Source of the DNA: Reclinomonas americana ATCC 50394
Taxonomy: Eukaryota
DNA: 50,153 bases
Reading direction: 5' to 3'
NCBI GenBank assembly: GCA_048213135.1
Contig: PS015202.1
Coordinates: 10,935-61,087, forward strand
Position 1 is the stretch's first letter, and each line of letters starts with the position of its first letter. The notes beneath the pieces are model-generated. The model was not told the DNA's origin and searched no databases. It saw only the letters and a program-made list of their open reading frames with translations. Positions 18,568 through 50,153 of this stretch are shown here, piece after piece. The position numbers were made by a program, and so were the translations under genes.

Positions 18568-18824
18568 GGGATGACGAATACTCGAGAACCACGCAACGTG
18601 TTCTCACGCAAAAGATGAAAAAGCGTGAGCAATTGCAATAAGGGCGGGAAGTAACGGTCGTATATTTCCTTCCATCGCTGCGATTTCGCTGGCGTTCGAG
18701 CACAGCAGGATGGACTGTACAAAGCCGTGAGACCTGTCATGAAACTGCGACGAGTGCGGCCACGTGAGAGGTTACGAGAGGCAGCATTCGCTCGGCGCGT
18801 GGTGTACAAGTTCGAAGTTCGGAT

Positions 18825-21087
18825 TCATTCGCTGTCGTGTGCGTGGGAGTGGTTGGCACTGGACTCCTCCGGTGGCCCCATGTCCGACCACCGTTCGTGG
18901 TGTGGGTTGAGCTGGCAGCCGGGCGCACTGAATTCGGTGGCCTTGCAGCATGTCCACTGTGCATTGGGGTGAGCGTACTGACAAGCGCGCAAGAATGTTG
19001 GTCGGAATACGCAGCGTGCTGTGCAGGTGGGAGAAATAAGAACACCACTCCATGGACATGAATGCAACACAAGGATATGTGAACGCAACTTGCTGCAGTC
19101 AACATCGTGGCATGGAACAGAAGGTGAACAAGCGAGTGAGAAACACAGGAATTCGACTCGTTTGTCGGAAAACATGAATTAATCGCGGCGCAACAATCTG
19201 CAAACGAGAGCGCGTTTAGTCATTAGCTGCGGTGCGGTTGTTCAGTGTGATGCGAGTCACGCAACGGTGAGCTGCAATCGGAATCGACGTGAACAGCAAC
19301 GGGAAGAAAGTCAGTATCAACTGGAGGGCATGCGCACTGGCATGACCACGCAGTGAATGGTACTCACGTGCTGTGAATGCGACAGCGTGAGTGACATGCA
19401 CGGAGGGTACGAAAGACACAGGCACTCGTACCTTCTGTGGAGGTGTGCGGGTACCAAGAGGGGGCGGAGGGAACAGTTGTTGAGAAGCAGCTTTGTAAAA
19501 TGCTGATATAAAGAAACTCACGCAACGAGCTGCGATCGGCACAGGTGAGTGAGACAGTGAGAGGCAGAGCTGACAGCGAAGACAAGCAAACGCAACAGGC
19601 TAGAGAAGGCAAGACAGGGCGATCGCAGACAGCAACAGCAGAGAGGGTGTCAGATGGAGTGCAGACTCGAGCAGGGTTGCGCCCACCACAAACCAACTGC
19701 GCCACCAACACACAAGAAAGGTGAGTGGACATTAGCGTTGCAAAACAAAACAGAGCAAACACCACGCACATGCTGTTGGCGATCCAGTTGCAGCAGCAGC
19801 GATGGGAAGTCAGTGCGAGAGCGCGAGAGTGTGACGAGCACACACGACATACCGTCTGCGATTTGCTCGACACAGTGAGCATGACAGCCACAAAACACGA
19901 AGCAGAACATGAGGAATGCACTCACCGGCTACCGGCAGCGAAGCGCATGCACAAACGAGAGGCAGTTGATTCTTCAGTCTGCAATCAACAACACCAACAC
20001 ACCGCCTACAACAGACTCACATACTGAAGCAAACAAGCAGGCAAATGTGAGTGAGAGGCAGACGACAGAAAAATGCTGCACGGCACACACAAACGACGCA
20101 ACAGCTCCAGGGTGGAAACGGCACTCCTCGGAAAAGTCGCAGGCCATCAGCCGACAGTTTCGACACTGGTACAACTGCGTGGCCATTGTCGGTCACCACT
20201 CCACCGTCATACAACATCCGGGATGGGTCTACACATACCTTGCTCTTCTCTGCTACTTCCTCGGAGCGCACCCGGACCGCAGTCATCTGCACCACACGTT
20301 CCATCACAACAACAAAACACCACTCTTCAACAAACAACTGAACGCACTTCATCGCGGATTTGCCGCCGCTCTGTCGCCTCCTCCACCTGCATCTTACTGA
20401 TCTGTGCGCGCCCCTCACATCAGCAAGTCATACGCGGTCACACCCTTCGTTCGTGGATCACCACCCACCATGGCCTGGATCCGATCTCGCTCCTCGTACA
20501 TTTGCCTCTCGCGCAACATCAGCCGCGCCTGTACAGTCTCAACCGACTCTTTCGCCGTCTCCAAACCCCCAACAAACCTGCTCTCCACCTCCTGCTCACA
20601 CGTCACTTGCCGGCTGCCAGTCTTGCGACAAGCGAACGACACACACCTGAAGTCGCGACTCCACAGTCTCGCGTCGCCCTCGCTCCTCCTGCGCGCACAT
20701 CTGCGTGTCAGTCACAGTGACCACTGTCACACACGTCACCATTGTCTCTCATCGCACGCAACAGCGAGCTCGCGTGAGAGTCGAGTGCGATCGTCATCGA
20801 GCAGCTGTTGCACGTTTGAGCGTGTCACACACACACACTCTCTCACACACGCGCGCACTACCTCCACAGCCTTTGCCAAGAGCTTCATACGATGCGCGTC
20901 CTCCTGTCGCGCCTTCTGCAGCGCTTCGTGTGCCTATTCGTTGCACACAGTGTCAACAACTTCCACTCAGTCACTGATGACAATGATCACTCGCCTGTTT
21001 CAACTCGCTCAGCTCCGCAAAGCACTGCTCCACGTGGCGCACCAGTGCCTGAATGTGCTCAGGAGTCGGCACGTGACTCGCCTCCAT
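18825..21087 (-). CDS. 22-exon coiled-coil protein with C-terminal Cys/His zinc-finger (CxxC..CRFHPG..WTCC..PGC..H, Btk/CHORD-like), ~243 aa with all exons included
   Basis: Exons 20995-21087, 20862-20933, 20763-20804, 20647-20700, 20469-20591, 20348-20401, 20239-20286, 20103-20174, then 13 microexons, then 18825-18956. All join in frame without stops. E/R/Q/K-rich helical N-terminus; LYQCRNCRLMACDFSEECRFHPGA...WTCCKATEFSAPGCQLNPHH. Confidence 0.85.
18957..20102 (-). other. Tandem array of 13 single-codon (3-nt; one 6-nt) microexons separated by 59-102 nt introns
   Basis: Recurring YAG|NNN|GT(GAGT/GCGT/ATGT/TGCG..) unit about every 60-105 nt, with pyrimidine-rich sequence and often a CTCAC/CTGAC/CTAAT branch-like motif upstream of the AG. 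Confidence 0.85.
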
Positions 21088-21155
21088 CTTCTCTCTCTCT
21101 CACACACGTCGCCGTCCGATCTGTCCTGATCTTCTCTCGTCTCTTGCGCGAAAGA
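21088..21155. promoter_or_regulatory. Putative bidirectional promoter / overlapping 5' region
   Basis: Only 68 bp between divergent start codons (21087 on -, 21156 on +). Confidence 0.55.
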
Positions 21156-22238
21156 ATGCTGTTGCATCTCGTTGACCTGCTGCGATCACGACGCATTGTG
21201 CTTGCCTCTGGTGTGTGTGTGTGTTACACAAGTTGCCAGTGTCTTGTGTACTGCTCTCACACACAACACACAGCTTCTCCTCGACGTCGCGAGATTCTGG
21301 AGAACATTGGCTTGCGTTTCGAGGTGGTGCCGAGTGCCTTTGCAGAGGACTTTGACAAGTTGCGTACGATGCGTGTGCAAGTGTGTCACAAGAGCATGCT
21401 GACAGCAGACAGACAGACGACGATTTGCGACTCCGCACGACTACGTGAAGGAGACTGCGCGCGCAAAGGGACTCGATGTGGCCAAGAGACTCACGCAGGT
21501 CTCTTGTGCATCTCACTGCGCTGTGTTGGTATGTGTGGTTCACTCTATGTGTGTGTGTTGGTGCATGCAGCCTGCGGACATGATCATCAGTGCGGATACG
21601 ATTGTGGTGGTGGCGGGTGGTAGCAAGGATGCAGATGTGACTGCCAACGGGTACCGTGTGTTGGAGAAGCCGGCGAATGCCGAGGATGCATGCCGCATGA
21701 TTCGGGAGCTCAGTGGGCGAGAGCACTTGGTCATTTCGGCTGTGGTGCTCATCTTTCCGCGGAGTGGCAGCGCCGGTTTCGTGTTTGTGTGGTATGCAAC
21801 GATCGAGCAGGCGCTGCGAGCTGACACAGTGTGTGTTTGTGGTAGAACCGGAGACTGTGGCCTTTGCGGAGGAGACGCGTGTGCGGTTTGCGGAGCTGAC
21901 GGATCGGGAAATCCGAGCGTATGTGGCGTCGGGCGAATCACTGTTGCGCGTGCTTTTCCCTTTAGCAGTGCGGGTTGCGTGCTGAATGTGTGCATGCAGA
22001 GACAAGGCGGGTGCGTATGGATACCAGGGGCTGGCGGGGACGCTGGTCAGCGCCATTGCTGGCGACTATTACAATGTGGTGGTTCGTCGCCTGCTGGGAG
22101 GCCTTCTTGCGCCTGCTGTTGTTTGCTTGTGTCTCACCGCTCGCGTCACAGGGCTTCCCGCTGCATGCTTTCTGCAAACGGCTGGCGACGATTGTGGAAG
22201 GCGCAGATGCGCAACGGCTGCTCGGCATCCGTTCATGA
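21156..22238 (+). CDS. maf: Maf-family nucleoside triphosphate pyrophosphatase (YhdE/ASMTL-type, likely dTTP/UTP)
   Basis: Spliced motifs IVLASASPRRREIL, ETARAKG, IISADTIVV, VLEKP, LSGREHLVIS, GESLDKAGAYGYQG, GDYYNVVGFPL. Confidence 0.93.
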
Positions 22239-26869: not shown

Positions 26870-29800
26870 TTATTCGTCCTCCAAGGTGTCGGTGAAATCA
26901 GGCAAGAATGAACCCAACACTCGATACAGCATGTCGGGGATCTGCGTCTCGTGACCTTCGACCGTGACCGCATGGTCGGCCAACGCGCCTCGTCGCTCAT
27001 TTGTCACTGACCATACGCGAAGTGTCTTGTCGTAACTCCCACTCAGCACATGCTGACCGTCGGGAGTGACAGCGACTGACATCACCGCACCAGTGTGTCC
27101 CTCCAACCGTCGTACCTCTTCTCCAGTCGCCAGTGACCACACTCGTACTGTTGAATCATGGCTACTGCTCACAATATGATAACCATCAGAGGCGACGGCG
27201 ACGGATGACACCACATTTGTGTGTCCCTCCAACTGCAGCACTTCTTCTCCATTCAACAGTGACCACAGTCGCACTGACTTGTCATTACCTCCACTCACAA
27301 CCAACTGACCATCGACGGTGACAGTGACTGACATCACCGCGCCAGAGTGCCCATCCAATCGGTATAATTCGTCACCACAAGTCAGTGACCACACCCGCAC
27401 AGTTTTGTCCAAGCTTCCGCTCAGAACGTAAAGCCCATCGGGAGTAATGGCAACAGACATCACAGCCTGGATGTGCCCCTTTAACTGCAGCACTTCTCCG
27501 CCACTCTCCAGTGACCACACCCTCACTGTCTTGTCCCGACTCCCGCTCACGATACATTGACCGTCGGGTGTGACAGCGACAGACGACACACAATCGGTGT
27601 GCCCTTCCAACCGCAACACTTCTTTCCCATTCGCCATAGACCATACTCTCACCGTCCTGTCATCACTCCCACTCACAAGGTGCTGACCATTGGGAGTGAC
27701 GGCAACAGACAGTACTCCTCCATCATGGCCCTCCAACCGTCGTACTTCCTCGCCACTCGCCATTGACCACACTCGCACCGTCTTGTCACTACTCCCGCTG
27801 ATAATGCGCTGACCATCTGGAGTAAACGCAAAATAGTTCACAGCTGCCGTGTGTCCCTCCAGCCGTCTCACTTCTTCTCCTCTCGCCGTGGGCCACACTC
27901 GCACAGTCTCATCACTACTCCCACTAACAACACCATGGCCATCGGGCGTAACGGCGACTGAGTACACCCCTCCACAATGTCCCTCTAACCGGCGGACTTC
28001 TTCCCCATTCGCCAGTGACCACACGCGTATTGTTTTGTCATCACTTCCACTTACAACGCGCAGACCATCGGCAGTGAAGGCGACAGAGTTCACTACACCA
28101 GTGTGCACCTCAAACCGTCGCAATTCTCCATCACTCGCCATAGACCACACTCGCACGGTGTGATCCTCACTCCCACTCACTGCGTGCAAACCATCAGGAG
28201 TGATGGCGATGGACAGTACTGAATGGGTGTGTCCCACCAACCGTCGCACCTCATCGCCACTCGCCAGTGCCCACACTCGGACAGATTTGTCCTCACTTCC
28301 ACTAAGAATGTGTAGACCATCGGGAGTGACGCTAACAGCCAGCACCGGTGCAGTGTGTCCCTCCAACCGTCGCACTTCATCTCCAGTTGTCAGTGACCAC
28401 ACTCGTACAGTTTTGTCCTCACTTCCACTCACAACGTGCTGACCATCGGGAGTGACGGCAACCGATCGCACCCGATGAGTGTGTCGAAATCGTTTTAACT
28501 CCTCGCCAGTCGCCATAGACCACGTTCGAATTGACCAGTCCTTGCTTCCACTTACGATATACACCCCATCGGGGGTAACTGCCACAGCCAACACTGAACC
28601 AGTGTGGCCTTCTAGTCGGCGCACCTCCTCGCCACTTGCCACCGACCACACTCGCACAGTCTTGTCATCACTCCCGCTCACAATGAACTGTCCATTTGGA
28701 GTCACCGCGACAGACATAACGCACTCAGTGTGACCCACCATTGGCTCCCTCGGCCACTTCACACCCGCCACATCTGCCTCTCTGAAATCCGCCTCCCTCG
28801 CATACGCCATGCACACATTCACCCCTCGCAAATCCGCCCCCCTCCACACCGTCCTGTGCATCACCGCATCCCTCAAATCCGCACCCCTCACTCGCACTCC
28901 CGACAGGTCTCGCCCACTGAACGACACTTGTGCCACACACAACACCGTCGCTGCATTCGCTGCCGCCGTCACCAGTCGCTCCTCATCCACCTCCATCGAC
29001 AACTCAATCACCTCCCACAATCTTGCTTGCAATCGAGGAGATCGTCGCACCACCTCGGCCACCTGCTCCACCAGTGATGGTCTGTCGTTCAGTAGTCGCA
29101 CAGCCAACACATGCTGTTGCACATCTTGCATCGTCAACCTCCTCTCTGCATCCCACGTCTCCCACGCAAACACATGCCGTGCCACACAGTGCTCCAGCAA
29201 CGACAGATGTACGAATCCCCACTGCGTCGTCCCATACCGTCGCACAATCGGGCAGCACACTCGGACATGTTGATTTCTGCGACCAAAAAACTTGTCAAAC
29301 GGTCCCTCTTCCACTCTTCGAATATCAAGTGGCGCACCGCCGAACTCTGCAATGTCTTCTTCGAACGCACGCTCCTCTGACACAGCTCGCACCACATTCC
29401 TGTCATGCATCAACCGTGCCAGTCCCTCACAGAATGCCAGACACGTTTCCTCACTCGGCACACGCTCCGCGCCCAGACGCGTCTGCCTCTCCTGCTCCCT
29501 CACAATCCACTGTCGATTGAATCGATCAAACACATTACACCGAGTCGGTCGCTGCACACCACTCGCCACCAACTGTGGCAACACACGAGCTACCACTGCC
29601 AACAGGAACGGATTCGACACCAGCGCATCTAGTCCATGCACAATCTCCAGTGCACGAATGTACTCCTCGGCAGTCGACCATCGCACATCACCATCATCGT
29701 CAGCATCTCCACCGACTTGCACCAGTCGCGAAAAGTACTCCTCAATCTGCTCCTTGCTGAACGGTGCAACATGCCGCTCCATCAGCTGCTGCATACACAA

Positions 29801-31583
29801 TTGTCCGCGTGCATCCACCGGTGCAAACAACCGTCGATACTGCGTCACACCACCCAATGCCGTCAGAGCGTAATCACCACGACAGGTGATAATCACCTTC
29901 ACATCGCGACACACATCCAGCTGGTTCTTGACAAACAGATTCACACCACGATACAACTCATCGTACCCGTCAAGCAACAACAGCAGCGGTTCCTCCTTCA
30001 GCCGTCGCACATCCTCCTCAAGGCCCAACTCGGGTGACAGTCGCTCCAGGGCCTCCTCCAGCAATCGCTCATCGGCATTGCGCAGAGCTCCAAGAGGCAC
30101 ACGCACAGGCACTCGTCTGCTCTCTCTCGTCTGCCACTGTCGCCATGCTCGCTCAGCCAGCACCGACATGGTGGTGGTCTTGCCGGCTCCACTGTTGCCA
30201 AACAGCACCAACACACGCTGCGTGGTGTTGGTGTCGGTGAGGAAAGCATCCACTTCCGTCAACAAATCCGTCATCTTCTCACTCGATGAAACGTCACGAT
30301 CACGTGAGCACAGCAATGGCACGTACATCTGCATGTCCTTGTGCATGCTCTCGTCGTGCTGATAGAAGGAGAGCTCACGCACCGCCAGTTGATGCAGTCG
30401 CTCCTCGAAGGTGCTGACGCTGAAGTCGAGATGCCGCGCATCACGAATCCGCGTCGCGAAACCAGTCATCGTATCGGCAGGCAGCTGCAGCTTGCCAAGG
30501 AGCGATAGGAACACACCGTCCACACTGAGATACTCTTCCACACGGGCGTCGGTCCATGGACATAAACCATGAACCAAATCGTTCCGTATTGCGCGCAACT
30601 GCTCCAGCGCCTTCCGTTCATCAACATCGTCAATCAGGAGTAGTTTGCGAACGTCATCCAGAACTAGGCCGCCATACAGCATGATGGAGATGAGTGCAGT
30701 CGTGTCGAATGCGTTGCACGGAGGGTCGGATGAAGGGTCAGTGTTGAATGCATTGCGCCAGGCCAACACCAGTGGTTGCACCTCCTTGAATAGCTTGACT
30801 TGCCATCCATTCACTGGAGCATGCCGCGCACGCCAGGCCTTCACTGCCGCCGCATCCATACCAGCAGGTGTGAATGCCGCCACCCAAGCCCGCACATCAA
30901 AGTCGGGATGATCACGACTGAACTGGGCCAGAGTGCGTTGACAGCGCAGACGCACGGCCTCCTCCACCACCTCAAACGCCATGTTGATGCGCTGCGAATT
31001 GATCATGCTGTGCTTAAACAAGGTGTCATGGTCGAGATGTGGTACGGAGAAGCGCCGACAAGCAAGACGAACCGCATCTCTCGCTGACTAGCGCTGCGTG
31101 AGCATGCAGTGAGCATGCAGTGAGTACCATGACCAGAGGGAGACAAGCAAGGCACGCACGCAGGCAGACACACGCGCAAACCTCTCAGTGCCACTCTTTG
31201 CACTCGGAGACAGCAGTACGACACCAAGTGTCACACGGACGACGAGATGAGTGGATAAGTTGATGCCCAGAATGCGAAGCGAAGTACCACCACCCTCCTC
31301 CAAGTCATACGGTACCGGCTTCTCCACCCCAACAATTTCCACCGCCTCATCTCCACTCTTCTCCCGCAGCAAGCGTGTGGCCTCGCGCAGCAGGTCCGCG
31401 AGAGTGGACATGGCCGACATGCCCTCCACCACCACCGACAGCGATGAATCATGCGCCGCACTTACGTGCACAGAGAACTGCGATACCACACAGACACACG
31501 ACATACACCATGCCGTGAGAAGACAGAGTTGCACTACAGCACTCACTAAGTGGCATGTGAGTTCACACCCGACTCACCGACAT
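26870..31583 (-). CDS. NLR-like STAND protein: ubiquitin-like domain + HEPN (DZIP3-like) + NACHT + pentapeptide repeats + 14 WD40 repeats
   Basis: Exons 31578-31583, 31182-31477, 31073-31093, 26870-31007. Walker A GNSGAGKTT; Walker B LLLLLDGYDE; KVIITCR; NPFLL; FVHLSLLE; FSGRDLSGVRVRGADLRDA pentapeptides; 14 GH..W repeats; HEPN RxxxxH motif RNDLVH. Confidence 0.92.
27010..28742 (-). repeat. 14 tandem WD40 coding repeats, ~126-bp period, high internal similarity
   Basis: Repeated GEEVRRLEGHxxxVxSVAVTPDGxxxVSGSxDKTVRVWS; DNA motifs GACCACACTCG and CCCTCCAACCG recur on the + strand. Confidence 0.93.
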
Positions 31584-46954: not shown

Positions 46955-48684
46955 ATGGCTGCGATTCCTGCAGAGGGCTACACAGTGGTGTGTATCTCTC
47001 GCTTGCCTATGTGATGAGCAGTCAATCACATGCATGTTGTGTGCATGCAGACTGAGGGCGAACTGCTGAGCGAACTGTGCGAGAATGGGTGTCTGGCGTT
47101 GACTCTGAATCGCCCCAAGGCCCTCAACGCACTCACTGTGGGTGCGGAATGGCATGCTGTGCCTGCTCCACGCGCTTGCTTGCTCAACTCAGCGCACACA
47201 CACACACAGACATGATTGAGACCATGTTGGCGCTGTTGACACGCGCGTTGCACGATGATCGCGTGAAGATGGTGTTTGTGAGAGGCACGGGCGATCGTGC
47301 GTTCTGCGCCGGTGGTGATATCAAGTATCTGTACAACGCACCGAGCGATGCGGAGCGGAGGGAGGCGGCCAAGTACTTTTTCAGTCGCGAGTATCGCCTC
47401 GACTATCTCATTTCCATGTTGCGTACGCACCCGTACCCGCCCATCCGCCCGCCCAGCTGCCACCACCATTCTCACTTGGTCTGGCCCTCGTAGCTTCCCG
47501 AAGCCGTACATAAGTCTGCTGGATGGCATCACCATGGGCGGTGGTGTCGGCATCTCGGTGCACGGTCGATTCCGCATCGCCACCGAGCGTTTCCTCTTTG
47601 CCATGCCCGAGTCGGCCATTGGCCTGTTTCCGGATGTCGGTGGCTCGTACTTTCTCGCGCACTGCCCCGGCTACACGGGTCTGTGCTTGGGTCTGACCGG
47701 GCGTCGCATCAAGGCCGCCGATGCACTGTACTTGGGCATTGTGACGCACGTCATGTCGCACGACTATGTGGAGAGCTTGGAGGTGACGTCTCACCACTAC
47801 CAGTGCTTCCTTGCGTGACTGACACATTGCTCTCCTGTGTGCTTTGCAGACGGCTCTGCGCACGTGGGAGCTGCGCGAGGCGACGAATGAGGTGGTCGAC
47901 GAGTTCCTGCAGCGCTTCTCGGCGCCGCCGGCCTCGCCCGCACCCATGGAGGCGGAGAGGGAGGAGATTGACGCCATCTTTGGGCATCGATCGTTGCGTG
48001 GCATCGAGACCGCTGCGTTGCGCTCCGACAAGTATCGACAGGCGTTCACCACGCAGTGCCCGAGCAGCATGTTGGTGCGTGATCAGGGGAAGGGGGAAGG
48101 AGAGGGAAACGAAATGAGAGCGAAGGAAGTGGAGGAGGGCAGAGAGATTCAGGACGGGAGGGGGAAGGAAGTGGAGGAGGGGGAAAAGGGAGGGGATGGG
48201 AGAGGACGGGAGGGGACAGCACGGAATGGGATGGAAGAGAAATGAGGAAGATGCGGTTGCAAGAGAAGGGCAGACGAAGCAGCAAACAAAGAATGGACGA
48301 GATTAAGGGGAGCCTGAGACAAGCGATGCTCACCTTCCTCCCCATGTCACAGGTGGCATTCCGCACCTTCAATCGCGTCCGCGAGGAGCGCATGTCACTG
48401 GGCGACGCACTGCAGATGGAGCTGGCGTTGGCGGTGAATCTGACGGCGCGACGGGACTTTGTGGAGGGCGTGCGTGCCGCCGTGGTCGACAAGAGCCACC
48501 AGCCAAGATGGACAATGATCAATCTCGATGGGACCGGTGAGCAGGCCCTTGTTTTCTCTCTCTCTCTCCCTCTGTTTTTCGCCTGTTTTCAATCCACGAC
48601 GCAGACTCCAAATTCCCCAGCGACATGCACGAACTGGACACCCTGTTCGAGGCACCTGATTTGCGCGTCGATATGGACTACTGA
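46955..48684 (+). CDS. HIBCH: 3-hydroxyisobutyryl-CoA hydrolase (crotonase family)
   Basis: [92 protein letters not shown]; spliced stop at 48682-48684. ATG 46955 directly follows an acceptor-like CAG, so an upstream exon is possible. Confidence 0.93.
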
Positions 48685-48790
48685 ACCGTGGAGCCGACAC
48701 ACACACACACACACAACAGTAGTTTACGCACGTTAAAAATATGATAAGACGAGCGGGAAATAGGAAACAATGGAAAAACAATCGACGCAG

Positions 48791-50153
48791 TTACAACTTG
48801 CGGATACTCATAAAGCCCTCGCCAGGATCCTCGCAGTTGAAGGAGATCGCCACTTTGGCGCCATCCGGCAGCGCCAGGAAATCAATCATGGTGAGTCCCG
48901 TGATGGCACCGGCGGGGTGGCGACCTACTGGCGCCAGCCGGCCCGACGAGTGATGTAGTGCGTAGCTGCGGGAGGGCAAACAGGCAATCAGCACGGTGTA
49001 ACAATGTAGAGAAAGATGACGCATGGGAAACACGCACGAATTGGAGTTGAGGGCCGACAAGACGGCGTCGCCATTGACGTGCAGCTGCACTGTGGGTTTC
49101 TTGCGCGAGTAGAAGCCGAACGAGATTTCGTAGAGACCGCCCGACACCACAGTAATGTTGACACGGTCCTTCTCCCACAAAAAGTTGTCGGGGTTGGTGT
49201 TGACCACTTGCACATTCCACGGCACTCCGTGTCCGTTCTTCAACCGGCCACTCTTCCAGATCCAGCGCCCCAGCAGATTCTGCGAGCAGAGCGCATCGTT
49301 GATGACACTCTGCTCGTCCAGGCCGCGACTGTACTCGGTCGTTGTCACTCGCGTGGCAATCATGTCCTCCAGTTCACTGGCGACTCGGTTCACGTGTTGA
49401 ATGTCTGCAGCAGCACCGAGTGTCAACCTCTGCCAGAATGGTCACTCAAAAAATCGCGGTCTCTCGCTGACGAACCTGCTTTCACGTCCAGCAACTTCAG
49501 CATGTCTTCCACGTTGGCCTTGACCGCCAGCTCCCGCCTCATTTCATCCATAATCACATCCGTCGTCAGCGTCGTCAAGCAGCGTTCCACTGACCGCTGC
49601 ACGATTTCTCCACTCTTGTCGTCCACAGCTCGCATCACAAAGTCCACGTCGGCCTTGCCCTCGATTGCGCGGCGGAAGACGTCTGTCAGCGCCACATGAG
49701 CACACCTCGATCGGACGAGGAAAAATAAAGAACATACACGCACACACAAACCTGCGGTAACTCGTCCCTCCAGTGCCCTCGCCACCTCATCGCGTGTGGT
49801 GTCCAAGCGAACATTGAAAAAGTCCTTTTCCTCGTGCAGTTTCAGATCGAACGACCGCCGCAACTCGTCCACCTCGGTCATCAGCCTCGTGTCGGTTATG
49901 CGGCGCACTTCGTCGACAAACTGCAACACGCGCGCGCACAGTGAGCGAGTGACGCAAACACAGGCAGGAGACTGGTGTCACACGCAACATCAGTGCGCAC
50001 GCGCTCCTCGACAAAGCGGCGCACGGCTTCTGCGTCGGCCTTGGTTCGCTGCTGCGATTCGTGCCTCTCCGATTCGAGCCGATTGTCGAGCACCCGCCTC
50101 GTGTCCTCACTGGAAAACAACAAACTACATGAGATACTTCCCCTTCCGACCTC
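48791..50153 (-). CDS. Coiled-coil protein with C-terminal C1q/TNF-like beta-sandwich; 5' end beyond window
   Basis: Heptad-rich exons with KADVD/KANVED repeats, followed by GRWIWKSG..VPWNVQVVNTNPDNFLW..ITVVSGGLYEISFGF..QLHVNG..DFLALPDGAKVAISF..GFMSIRKL*. The C1q-like assignment is by recalled pattern only. Confidence 0.75.

Follow-up and report, generated by a model that had tools for sequence, protein, structure and literature searches.

We have analysed a stretch of 50,153 nucleotides (nt) from the jakobid Reclinomonas americana ATCC 50394 (assembly GCA_048213135.1, contig PS015202.1). This stretch is referred to below as the window, its positions are counted from its first letter, and it has a G+C content of about 57% and short introns. 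A single gene on the minus strand fills positions 18825 to 21087, with its ATG at 21087 and the end of the stop codon at 18825. The coding sequence of 720 nt specifies a product of 239 amino acids and is cut by 21 introns into 22 exons. Exons 1 to 8 were read by eye as a charged helical protein with the C-terminal end ...CRNC...CRFHPGA. Between exon 8 and the last exon lie 1146 nt, throughout which the pattern AG-NNN-GT recurs. This block contains 13 microexons, twelve of 3 nt and one of 6 nt, which together contribute 42 of the 720 coding nucleotides, whereas the remaining nine exons measure 42 to 132 nt each. All 21 introns are of phase 0 and all 20 internal exons are multiples of three.

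The gene is real and expressed in R. americana. In a protein search for longer proteins, the 41 amino acids of exon 5 had a single match among 12 candidates. This match, here called P0001, is a complete open reading frame of 239 amino acids derived from a sequence named EC799531.1 and kept in EukProt under EP00694, Reclinomonas americana. To judge by its form, EC799531 is the GenBank accession of an expressed sequence tag (EST), of which the TBestDB table gives 17,644 for this species (PMC1899108). P0001 reads ...CRFHPGA-YPAHLPLKHLTIQH-WTCCK... and thus holds the residues of the 13 candidate microexons in their proper order. The protein encoded by the 22 joined exons aligns collinearly and gap-free with P0001, with 232 of 239 positions identical. 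The seven differences can all be explained by single-base changes, as expected for another strain, another allele or single-pass reads. The exon 5 search returned no annotated protein besides the EST-derived P0001, and the ab initio parse of the gene was wrong, proposing five introns of mixed phases.

The exon structure follows from an exhaustive threading of the window onto P0001, in which GT or GC donors, AG acceptors and introns of 20 to 1300 nt were allowed and either residue was accepted at the seven sites of difference. Exactly one path was obtained, with 21 introns, all of them phase 0. A preliminary description of this DNA, made from the letters alone, had proposed phase 0 for every intron, with the caveat that the true junctions might include phases 1 and 2; the sole path leading to P0001 includes neither. 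Looser rules (AT and GA donors in addition, introns down to 15 nt) merely added a variant in which intron 9 is split around an exon of zero length, and this variant is likewise phase 0 throughout. A path encoding the loop between exon 8 and the last exon was found in none of 300 dinucleotide-preserving shuffles of the 1146-nt block, against one in the real sequence. Moreover, the pattern YAG-NNN-GT occurs 12 times within 1.2 kb at the gene, whereas stretches of that length clear of the gene hold at most five, and those on the opposite strand at most four.

It might be argued that the EST came from an intron-poor paralog, that the copy in the window is decayed or mis-assembled and that the microexons are coincidental. 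The seven amino-acid differences between the window and P0001 could be taken in this sense, as could the runs of N elsewhere in the window. However, the differences are single-base changes without exception, 22 of 22 exons are intact with the frame open, no run of N lies within 18825-21087, and 13 codons stand in order, each flanked by AG and by GT or GC at intron-like spacing, an arrangement that the shuffles never produced. We therefore consider such an artefact extremely improbable.

The coordinates of the exons are collected in Table 1. The preliminary description had the 13 microexons right, as well as the rule that all exons are multiples of three with junctions between codons. It was also right on ordinary exons of 93, 72, 42, 123, 54, 48, 72 and 132 nt, but it was mistaken on exon 4, for which it gave 54 nt. 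P0001 lacks the residues MCAQ, so that this exon starts at 20688 (42 nt) and not at 20700. An extra AG does lie 12 nt upstream of the exon 4 acceptor (20689-20700, minus strand); both acceptors are in frame, and use of the upstream one would add Met-Cys-Ala-Gln. The motif CTGAC stands 19 nt before the distal acceptor, and on general grounds the proximal AG may be too near the branch point for use. A comparable decoy is seen in intron 9, where TAG-GCG-GTGTGT (codon at 20003-20005, minus strand) resembles a fourteenth single-codon exon; this Ala codon sits 15 nt past the intron 9 donor and is not represented in the EST-derived protein. On the plus strand, positions 20401-21129 form an open frame of 242 codons antisense to exons 1 to 5 and their introns. 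It is of low complexity, rich in Ser, Thr, His, Leu and Arg, and is most simply regarded as a by-product of the G+T-rich sense strand and not as a gene.

Table 1. Positions in the window of the exons and selected introns of the microexon gene and of introns in the neighbouring hydrolase gene.
Feature	Position	Strand	Remarks
Exon 1	20995..21087	-	93 nt, begins with ATG
Intron 1	20934-20994	-	61 nt, GC donor GCGAGT
Exon 2	20862..20933	-	72 nt, coiled coil
Exon 3	20763..20804	-	42 nt; donor of intron 3 is GTTGCG
Exon 4	20647..20688	-	42 nt according to the transcript-derived protein
Exon 5	20469..20591	-	123 nt; search query that recovered P0001
Exon 6	20348..20401	-	54 nt
Exon 7	20239..20286	-	48 nt
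Exon 8	20103..20174	-	72 nt; codes LYQCRNCRLMACDFSEECRFHPGA, first half of the Cys/His motif
Microexon block	18957..20102	-	14 introns (59-102 nt) and 13 microexons
Microexon 1	20021..20023	-	TAT (Tyr)
Microexon 2	19926..19928	-	CCG (Pro)
Microexon 3	19853..19855	-	ACG (Thr; P0001 has Ala)
Microexon 4	19770..19772	-	CAT (His)
Microexon 5	19694..19696	-	TTG (Leu)
Microexon 6	19597..19599	-	CCT (Pro)
Microexon 7	19527..19529	-	CTC (Leu)
Microexon 8	19432..19434	-	AAG (Lys)
Microexon 9	19368..19370	-	CAC (His)
Microexon 10	19266..19271	-	CTCACC (Leu-Thr), sole two-codon microexon
Microexon 11	19195..19197	-	ATT (Ile)
Microexon 12	19090..19092	-	CAA (Gln)
Microexon 13	19016..19018	-	CAC (His); followed by intron 21, GC donor GCTGCG
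Last exon	18825..18956	-	132 nt with stop; codes WTCCKATEFSAPGC..H, matches Pfam BTK
Hydrolase intron	47142-47209	+	phase 1, 7 of 7 alignments
Hydrolase intron	47418-47493	+	phase 2, 6 of 7 alignments
Hydrolase intron	47783-47849	+	phase 0, 5 of 7 alignments

The product consists of a two-helix coiled coil followed by a C-terminal Cys/His domain that resembles a zinc finger. The AlphaFold model, based on three sequences, is confident for the two helices only (residues 9-77 and 90-158), and the zinc domain (157-239) has a predicted local distance difference test score (pLDDT) below 50. The Cys/His domain has the pattern C-x2-C-x10-C-x2-H-x17-W-x-C-C-x9-C-x4-H, in which eight residues in the order C,C,C,H,C,C,C,H are potential metal ligands. 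In Pfam, P0001 just passes the BTK (PF00779) cut-off of 24 bits, with a score of 24.1 (E 3.4e-5) over positions 11-25 of the 30 in the profile, and the last exon alone reaches 24.5 bits, a borderline match that covers the second half of the motif only. In Tec kinases and some RasGAPs the BTK motif directly follows a PH domain. No PH domain is among the Pfam hits of P0001, which has the coiled coil upstream instead. The same order of Cys and His is known from CHORD, yet CHORD (PF04968) is absent from the Pfam hits of P0001 at E values up to 1. Protein-atlas hits labelled BTK/CHORD score 0.87, below the threshold for a lead, and in one of their clusters 19% of the members carry CHORD.

An exhaustive HMMER search of 1.84 billion representative proteins yielded two relatives at E < 1e-3: P0002, encoded on a contig of 1039 nt, and P0003 from the amoeba Thecamoeba quadrilineata, which also has LysM and UBA-like Pfam domains. 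No more were gained by a search with a profile. Two metagenome scans, one with alignment A1 and then one with P0002, gave no confirmed locus. In the alignment of the three sequences C162, N164, C165, C176, H179, G181, W197, C199, C200, G209, C210 and H215 are invariant. More specifically, the spacer between HPG and W-x-CC, which separates the two halves of the zinc motif, has 15 residues in each of the three proteins and is aligned without a gap. Its first residue (182) comes from the end of exon 8 and the other 14 (183-196) from the 13 microexons. Several of these residues are shared as well, namely Tyr (spacer position 2), Pro (7) and Leu (11) with P0003 and Ile-Gln (positions 13 and 14) with P0002.

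The block was also searched with tblastn for relics of coding sequence. The three domains matched real exons only, apart from one extension of the last exon into intron 21 that was at chance level when scored by hand, and the idea was rejected. Read through in the frame of the last exon, intron 21 (18957-19026, minus strand) gives ...C..C...C.Y.HPNAQ ahead of WTCC. With the intron-derived HPNAQ included, the BTK match in Pfam rises from 24.5 to 27.7 bits, and the read-through also lengthens the tblastn match of P0002. We judge this resemblance to be a coincidence.

The uniform phase of the gene stands out from its surroundings, in line with the earlier claim that other genes of the window mix phases. 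For the neighbouring 3-hydroxyisobutyryl-CoA hydrolase (HIBCH) gene, alignments of seven homologs with our own spliced aligner placed three introns of phases 1, 2 and 0 (Table 1), the placement of a fourth being inconsistent among the alignments. In a cathepsin gene, the I29 propeptide domain stops at the last residue of an exon piece (profile position 51 of 59) and continues in a different frame past a 73-nt intron, read as phase 2. The first intron of the adjoining Maf-like gene is apparently also phase 2, as read by eye with Pfam support for the upstream piece only. A crude Viterbi gene finder predicted 109 introns outside the gene, with phases 0/1/2 of 36/43/30, and a stricter subset of 37 with phases of 15/15/7. 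Phase 0 thus makes up 33-41% of the other predicted introns in the window. These counts are approximate, since the gene finder is rough, merges genes too readily on retraining and mis-models the gene studied here, and the homology-guided check on the hydrolase was added for this reason. In our own predicted models of other genes, introns number 18 per 5826 nt, 20 per 5715, 5 per 2229 and 1 per 4494, as compared to 21 per 720 nt here.

Given the mixed phases of the neighbours, the uniform phase is beyond chance, provided that the introns are independent: for 21 of 21 the probability is 8e-11 to 5e-7 at a phase-0 fraction of 0.33-0.5. However, the 14 introns of the block are dependent, as the 13 microexons propagate one phase. 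If the block is counted once, eight of eight introns in phase 0 have a probability of 1e-4 to 4e-3 over the same range of fractions. The structure could then reflect the neutral local multiplication of one phase-0 intron, with seven others in phase 0 by accident and no selection on phase at all. Thousands of genes with several introns would indeed include a few with such a run. Nevertheless, the gene was chosen for its microexons and not for its phases, so that the seven introns outside the block form an unselected sample, and the probability that all of these are phase 0 is 4e-4 to 8e-3. In addition, 13 random insertions into a coding stretch of 45 nt would all fall between codons with a probability of about 6e-7. 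Chance and arithmetic together are therefore an unlikely explanation.

The introns of the block are ordinary spliceosomal introns. All 21 introns of the gene measure 55 to 102 nt, with 19 GT donors, two GC donors (introns 1 and 21) and AG acceptors throughout, and show the canonical U2-type features for which they were tested. The two parts of the gene differ in composition. Introns 1 to 7 (20175-20994) are G+T-rich, with a G fraction of 0.37 and a pyrimidine fraction of 0.43 (p 3e-4), whereas introns 8 to 21 (18957-20102) are C+T-rich and poor in A, with a pyrimidine fraction of 0.62 as compared to 0.56 in the stricter set of introns from other genes (p 0.007). Over the last 30 nt the pyrimidine fraction is 0.65 in the block versus 0.42 in the upstream introns, and a CTNAY branch-like motif occurs in the last 50 nt of 11 of the 14 block introns versus two of introns 1 to 7. 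Moreover, the block introns are depleted of internal AG, with 20 occurrences where 32.1 are expected (one of 500 shuffles was as low) and a density of 1.9 per 100 nt as compared to 4.4 in the introns of other genes. This looks like selection against cryptic acceptors for the sake of accurate, constitutive splicing, and in pointing to selection on splicing it also weighs against the accidental origin considered above.

The donors show a peculiarity of their own. GTTGCG is enriched in the gene, being found at seven of its 21 introns as compared to 3 of the 109 introns predicted elsewhere (Fisher p 1e-4), the latter figure being a lower bound because the model misreads GTTGCG donors as GC donors 3 nt downstream. 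In the window the heptamer GTTGCGT has 28 occurrences where 12.9 would be expected, and its strand tracks gene direction (for example 21359-21365 and 47418-47424 on the plus strand and 20756-20762 on the minus strand). The neighbouring hydrolase gene uses it as a donor and so, as read by eye, does the Maf-like gene. GTTGCGT is thus a genome-wide donor class, and may amount to a GTGCGT donor with one bulged base.

The introns show no mutual similarity beyond splice motifs, either in an all-against-all blastn-short comparison or in global alignments with shuffles. The longest words that they have in common measure 13 nt, and their only match elsewhere in the window is the (GT)n run of intron 2. 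An origin of the introns from one another or from introners was accordingly rejected. The same applies to a block duplication suggested by HLPLK and HLTIQ, as the corresponding intron pairs are no more alike than others. Nor did any of the 20 introns that were folded stand out from its shuffles (z -1.36 to +1.98), so that no RNA-structure device is needed. A search of 18600-21300 against Rfam gave no match except mir-194 (E 0.57, 19 bits against a gathering score of 52), and the whole window gave none at gathering score. With no Rfam family and no intron folding better than its shuffles, the idea of a host gene for small nucleolar RNAs or of structured introns was dropped.

These comparisons bear on a further explanation, in which the single-codon exons were added one by one to a single long phase-0 intron or to one microexon. 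The additions could have come about by exonisation of AG-NNN-GT sites, which resemble recursive splice sites that leave 3 nt behind, or by the duplication of a microexon along with half of the intron on either side through unequal crossing-over, the length of the loop being held by compensating losses from a flanking exon. The attraction of this explanation is that phase 0 and the three-base step come automatically, since any addition whose length is not divisible by three would shift the frame downstream; the explanation demands the strict step, whereas intron insertion does not. On the same side we count the outlying size that the block would have as one undivided intron (1.1 kb, with a median of about 70 nt for predicted introns and a largest value of 278 nt in the stricter set), the weak five-residue echo in the loop, HLPLK-HLTIQ-H, and the enrichment of GTTGCG donors in the gene. 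However, GTTGCGT donors are used in neighbouring genes too and are no mark of common descent, and the introns lack the similarity to one another that duplication would leave, the pairs expected from a duplication of five exons ranking 50 to 180 of 210. The spacer is free of gaps in three members of the family and at five positions identical to one homolog or the other, and the residues of the loop consequently look ancestral and not added. Stepwise addition thus appears doubtful, though somewhat less so than accident.

The modular structure also invites a functional explanation, and it had indeed been suggested that the gene was selected for tunable length or for tolerance of exon skipping. 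The underlying observation stands: with every exon a multiple of three and every junction between codons, the reading frame would survive the loss of any one internal exon or of several in a row. Purposeful skipping of microexons or coiled-coil exons could in this way vary the length of the loop or of the rod. The second in-frame acceptor 12 nt upstream of exon 4 would fit such regulation, as would the schistosome micro-exon genes, which vary their proteins by means of symmetric short exons (PMC8293314). Against this, the only transcript-derived protein available contains all 22 exons. No hydrophobic N-terminal signal is seen by eye, and the product is no secreted variable antigen. For the microexon part, tunable length is disfavoured by a spacer of exactly 15 residues in both distant homologs, since shorter loops would be unlikely to fold alike, and by the AG depletion of the block, which suggests selection against splicing errors. 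We regard regulated variation in length as improbable. The other half of the suggestion, tolerance of exon skipping or mis-splicing as the cause of the pattern, is plausible.

We favour, with a probability of roughly 0.5, an account in which the 21 phase-0 introns include a series that subdivides an ancestral loop into microexons, was filtered by the consequences of mis-splicing and is processed by intron-defined splicing. The uniform phase would then be something other than 21 independent events, with a single phase-0 boundary recurring at three-base steps within the block. Because the length of the spacer and several of its residues are common to distant homologs, the microexons most likely subdivide a coding stretch that was once continuous, rather than add residues to it. 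Since the insertion of introns has no cause to respect codons, a filter is the best explanation for the strictness of the three-base step. An exon of 3 nt would be skipped easily, as the donor upstream of it can pair with the acceptor downstream, and after such an event only exons that are multiples of three would leave a product in frame; a skip would then cost one residue and not the frame. Elsewhere in this intron-dense gene the same filter would give an advantage to short exons that are symmetric and of phase 0, and the phase uniformity is probably kept by selection.

With regard to the splicing itself, 3 nt cannot hold the factors that bind the upstream acceptor together with U1 on the downstream donor, and the introns are for this reason most likely removed by intron definition, one after another. 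After each removal the next donor would lie behind an exon of normal size, as in recursive splicing, with which the AG-NNN-GT layout is compatible. In plants, introns that flank microexons tend to be detained and to be spliced after polyadenylation (PMC8831610), which fits an ordered and slow removal.

A number of points weigh against the favoured account. The gene model has the support of one transcript-derived protein, compared at the protein level, and the conservation of loop length is that of three sequences. The skipping, the order of splicing and the constitutive use are matters that we infer. Organisms with short introns err mostly by retaining introns and not by skipping exons, and errors of this type weaken the argument for a filter on the ordinary exons. 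The donors of the block score low with matrices derived from the other predicted introns (mean -1.6 versus 3.2), and position weight matrices gave no sign of reinforced splice sites, in a comparison that is circular and biased against the GTTGCG class. Furthermore, the account gives no reason for a gain of 13 introns within 45 nt, and the comparison of the introns reveals neither a mechanism nor mutual similarity. That a conserved zinc-finger loop of 15 residues was in fact shredded codon by codon, through a local burst of intron gain that acts, or is filtered, in exact three-base steps, is a tentative proposal to which we give less than even chances by a wide margin. If it is true, it implies a process by which introns beget introns near existing junctions, for example by reverse splicing a few bases away, and a spliceosome able to join a dozen single-codon exons one after another, constitutively and in a set order.

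Other features of the window are of interest for comparison. The microexon gene and the Maf-like gene on the opposite strand are arranged head to head, with their starts about 190 nt apart (21088-21280), which suggests a shared promoter region. An open frame of 1405 codons on the minus strand (26870-31087), with many WD40-like repeats after an NTPase-like region (GNSGAGKT), is intronless, in sharp contrast to the microexon gene with its dense introns. The hydrolase gene (47100-48960, plus strand) contains three or more introns, with phases 1, 2 and 0 among them. One of its exons shares 65-77% identity with many enoyl-CoA hydratases from alphaproteobacteria and 56-60% with the two animal proteins among the matches listed, and the protein search returned no transcript-derived protein of R. 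americana for this gene. Runs of N at approximately 11.4-12.1, 15.7-16.0, 25.6-26.4, 35.26-35.32 and 36.85-37.36 kb interrupt several genes, including the cathepsin L-like one.

The gene provides an extreme natural test case for the way in which tiny exons are spliced and in which such a structure arises. Twelve single-codon exons and one two-codon exon, all present in the sole known product, are at or beyond the accepted limits of exon size. Such a run cannot be spliced by exon definition and therefore constitutes a clean natural system for the study of ordered, intron-defined splicing of a recursive-like kind. Moreover, a three-base step within a loop of conserved length separates the sites at which introns insert from the survival of the insertions, two aspects that are usually confounded. 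Considering the failed ab initio parse and the lack of an annotated protein besides P0001, genes of this kind are probably missed or truncated in the annotation of protist genomes.

The motif at the C-terminus is related in appearance to known zinc-binding modules. The last exon matches Pfam BTK and the eight Cys and His residues show the CHORD arrangement of C,C,C,H,C,C,C,H, but the gene differs from Btk-type and CHORD proteins in lacking a PH domain and a Pfam CHORD hit. As to gene structure, recursive splicing offers one parallel. At its AG|GT ratchet points, by which very long introns are subdivided, nothing is left behind in the mRNA. The regenerated donor directly after the acceptor, which implies a stepwise removal of neighbouring segments, is common to both, whereas here 3 or 6 coding bases stay behind at each step and the segments are normal short introns. 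Conserved plant microexons of 1 to 15 nt are described as constitutive, coding, situated within conserved domains and often unannotated (Yu et al. 2022, PMC8831610). In the clusters reported there the phases 0/1/2 number 16/21/8, with one or two microexons per gene region, as compared to 13 in a row here, all of phase 0. The 3-nt microexons of animals, such as those of cytohesin-1, Drosophila homothorax and MAP4K5, likewise add a single residue, but they are solitary, usually alternative and placed between long introns, whereas here twelve single-codon exons and one two-codon exon follow each other across introns of 59 to 102 nt. In the part of the literature covered by our search, exons of 3 nt appear in isolation only and a chain of consecutive single-codon exons is not described.

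The closest formal resemblance is to the micro-exon genes (MEGs) of Schistosoma, which according to the same source as above (PMC8293314) consist mainly of exons of at most 36 bp, are alternatively spliced, encode host-exposed proteins and seem restricted to schistosomes. In both cases short symmetric exons that can be removed in frame lie between ordinary first and last exons, and the symmetry of the internal exons is complete here, with 20 of 20 being multiples of three and 21 introns of phase 0. However, microexons supply just 42 of the 720 coding nucleotides, so that the gene is not composed mainly of them and is not classed as a MEG. Unlike the MEGs, it encodes a coiled-coil and zinc-finger protein of a free-living flagellate, of which one product is known that contains all exons. 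The gene is thus a case of symmetric microexons carried to an extreme.

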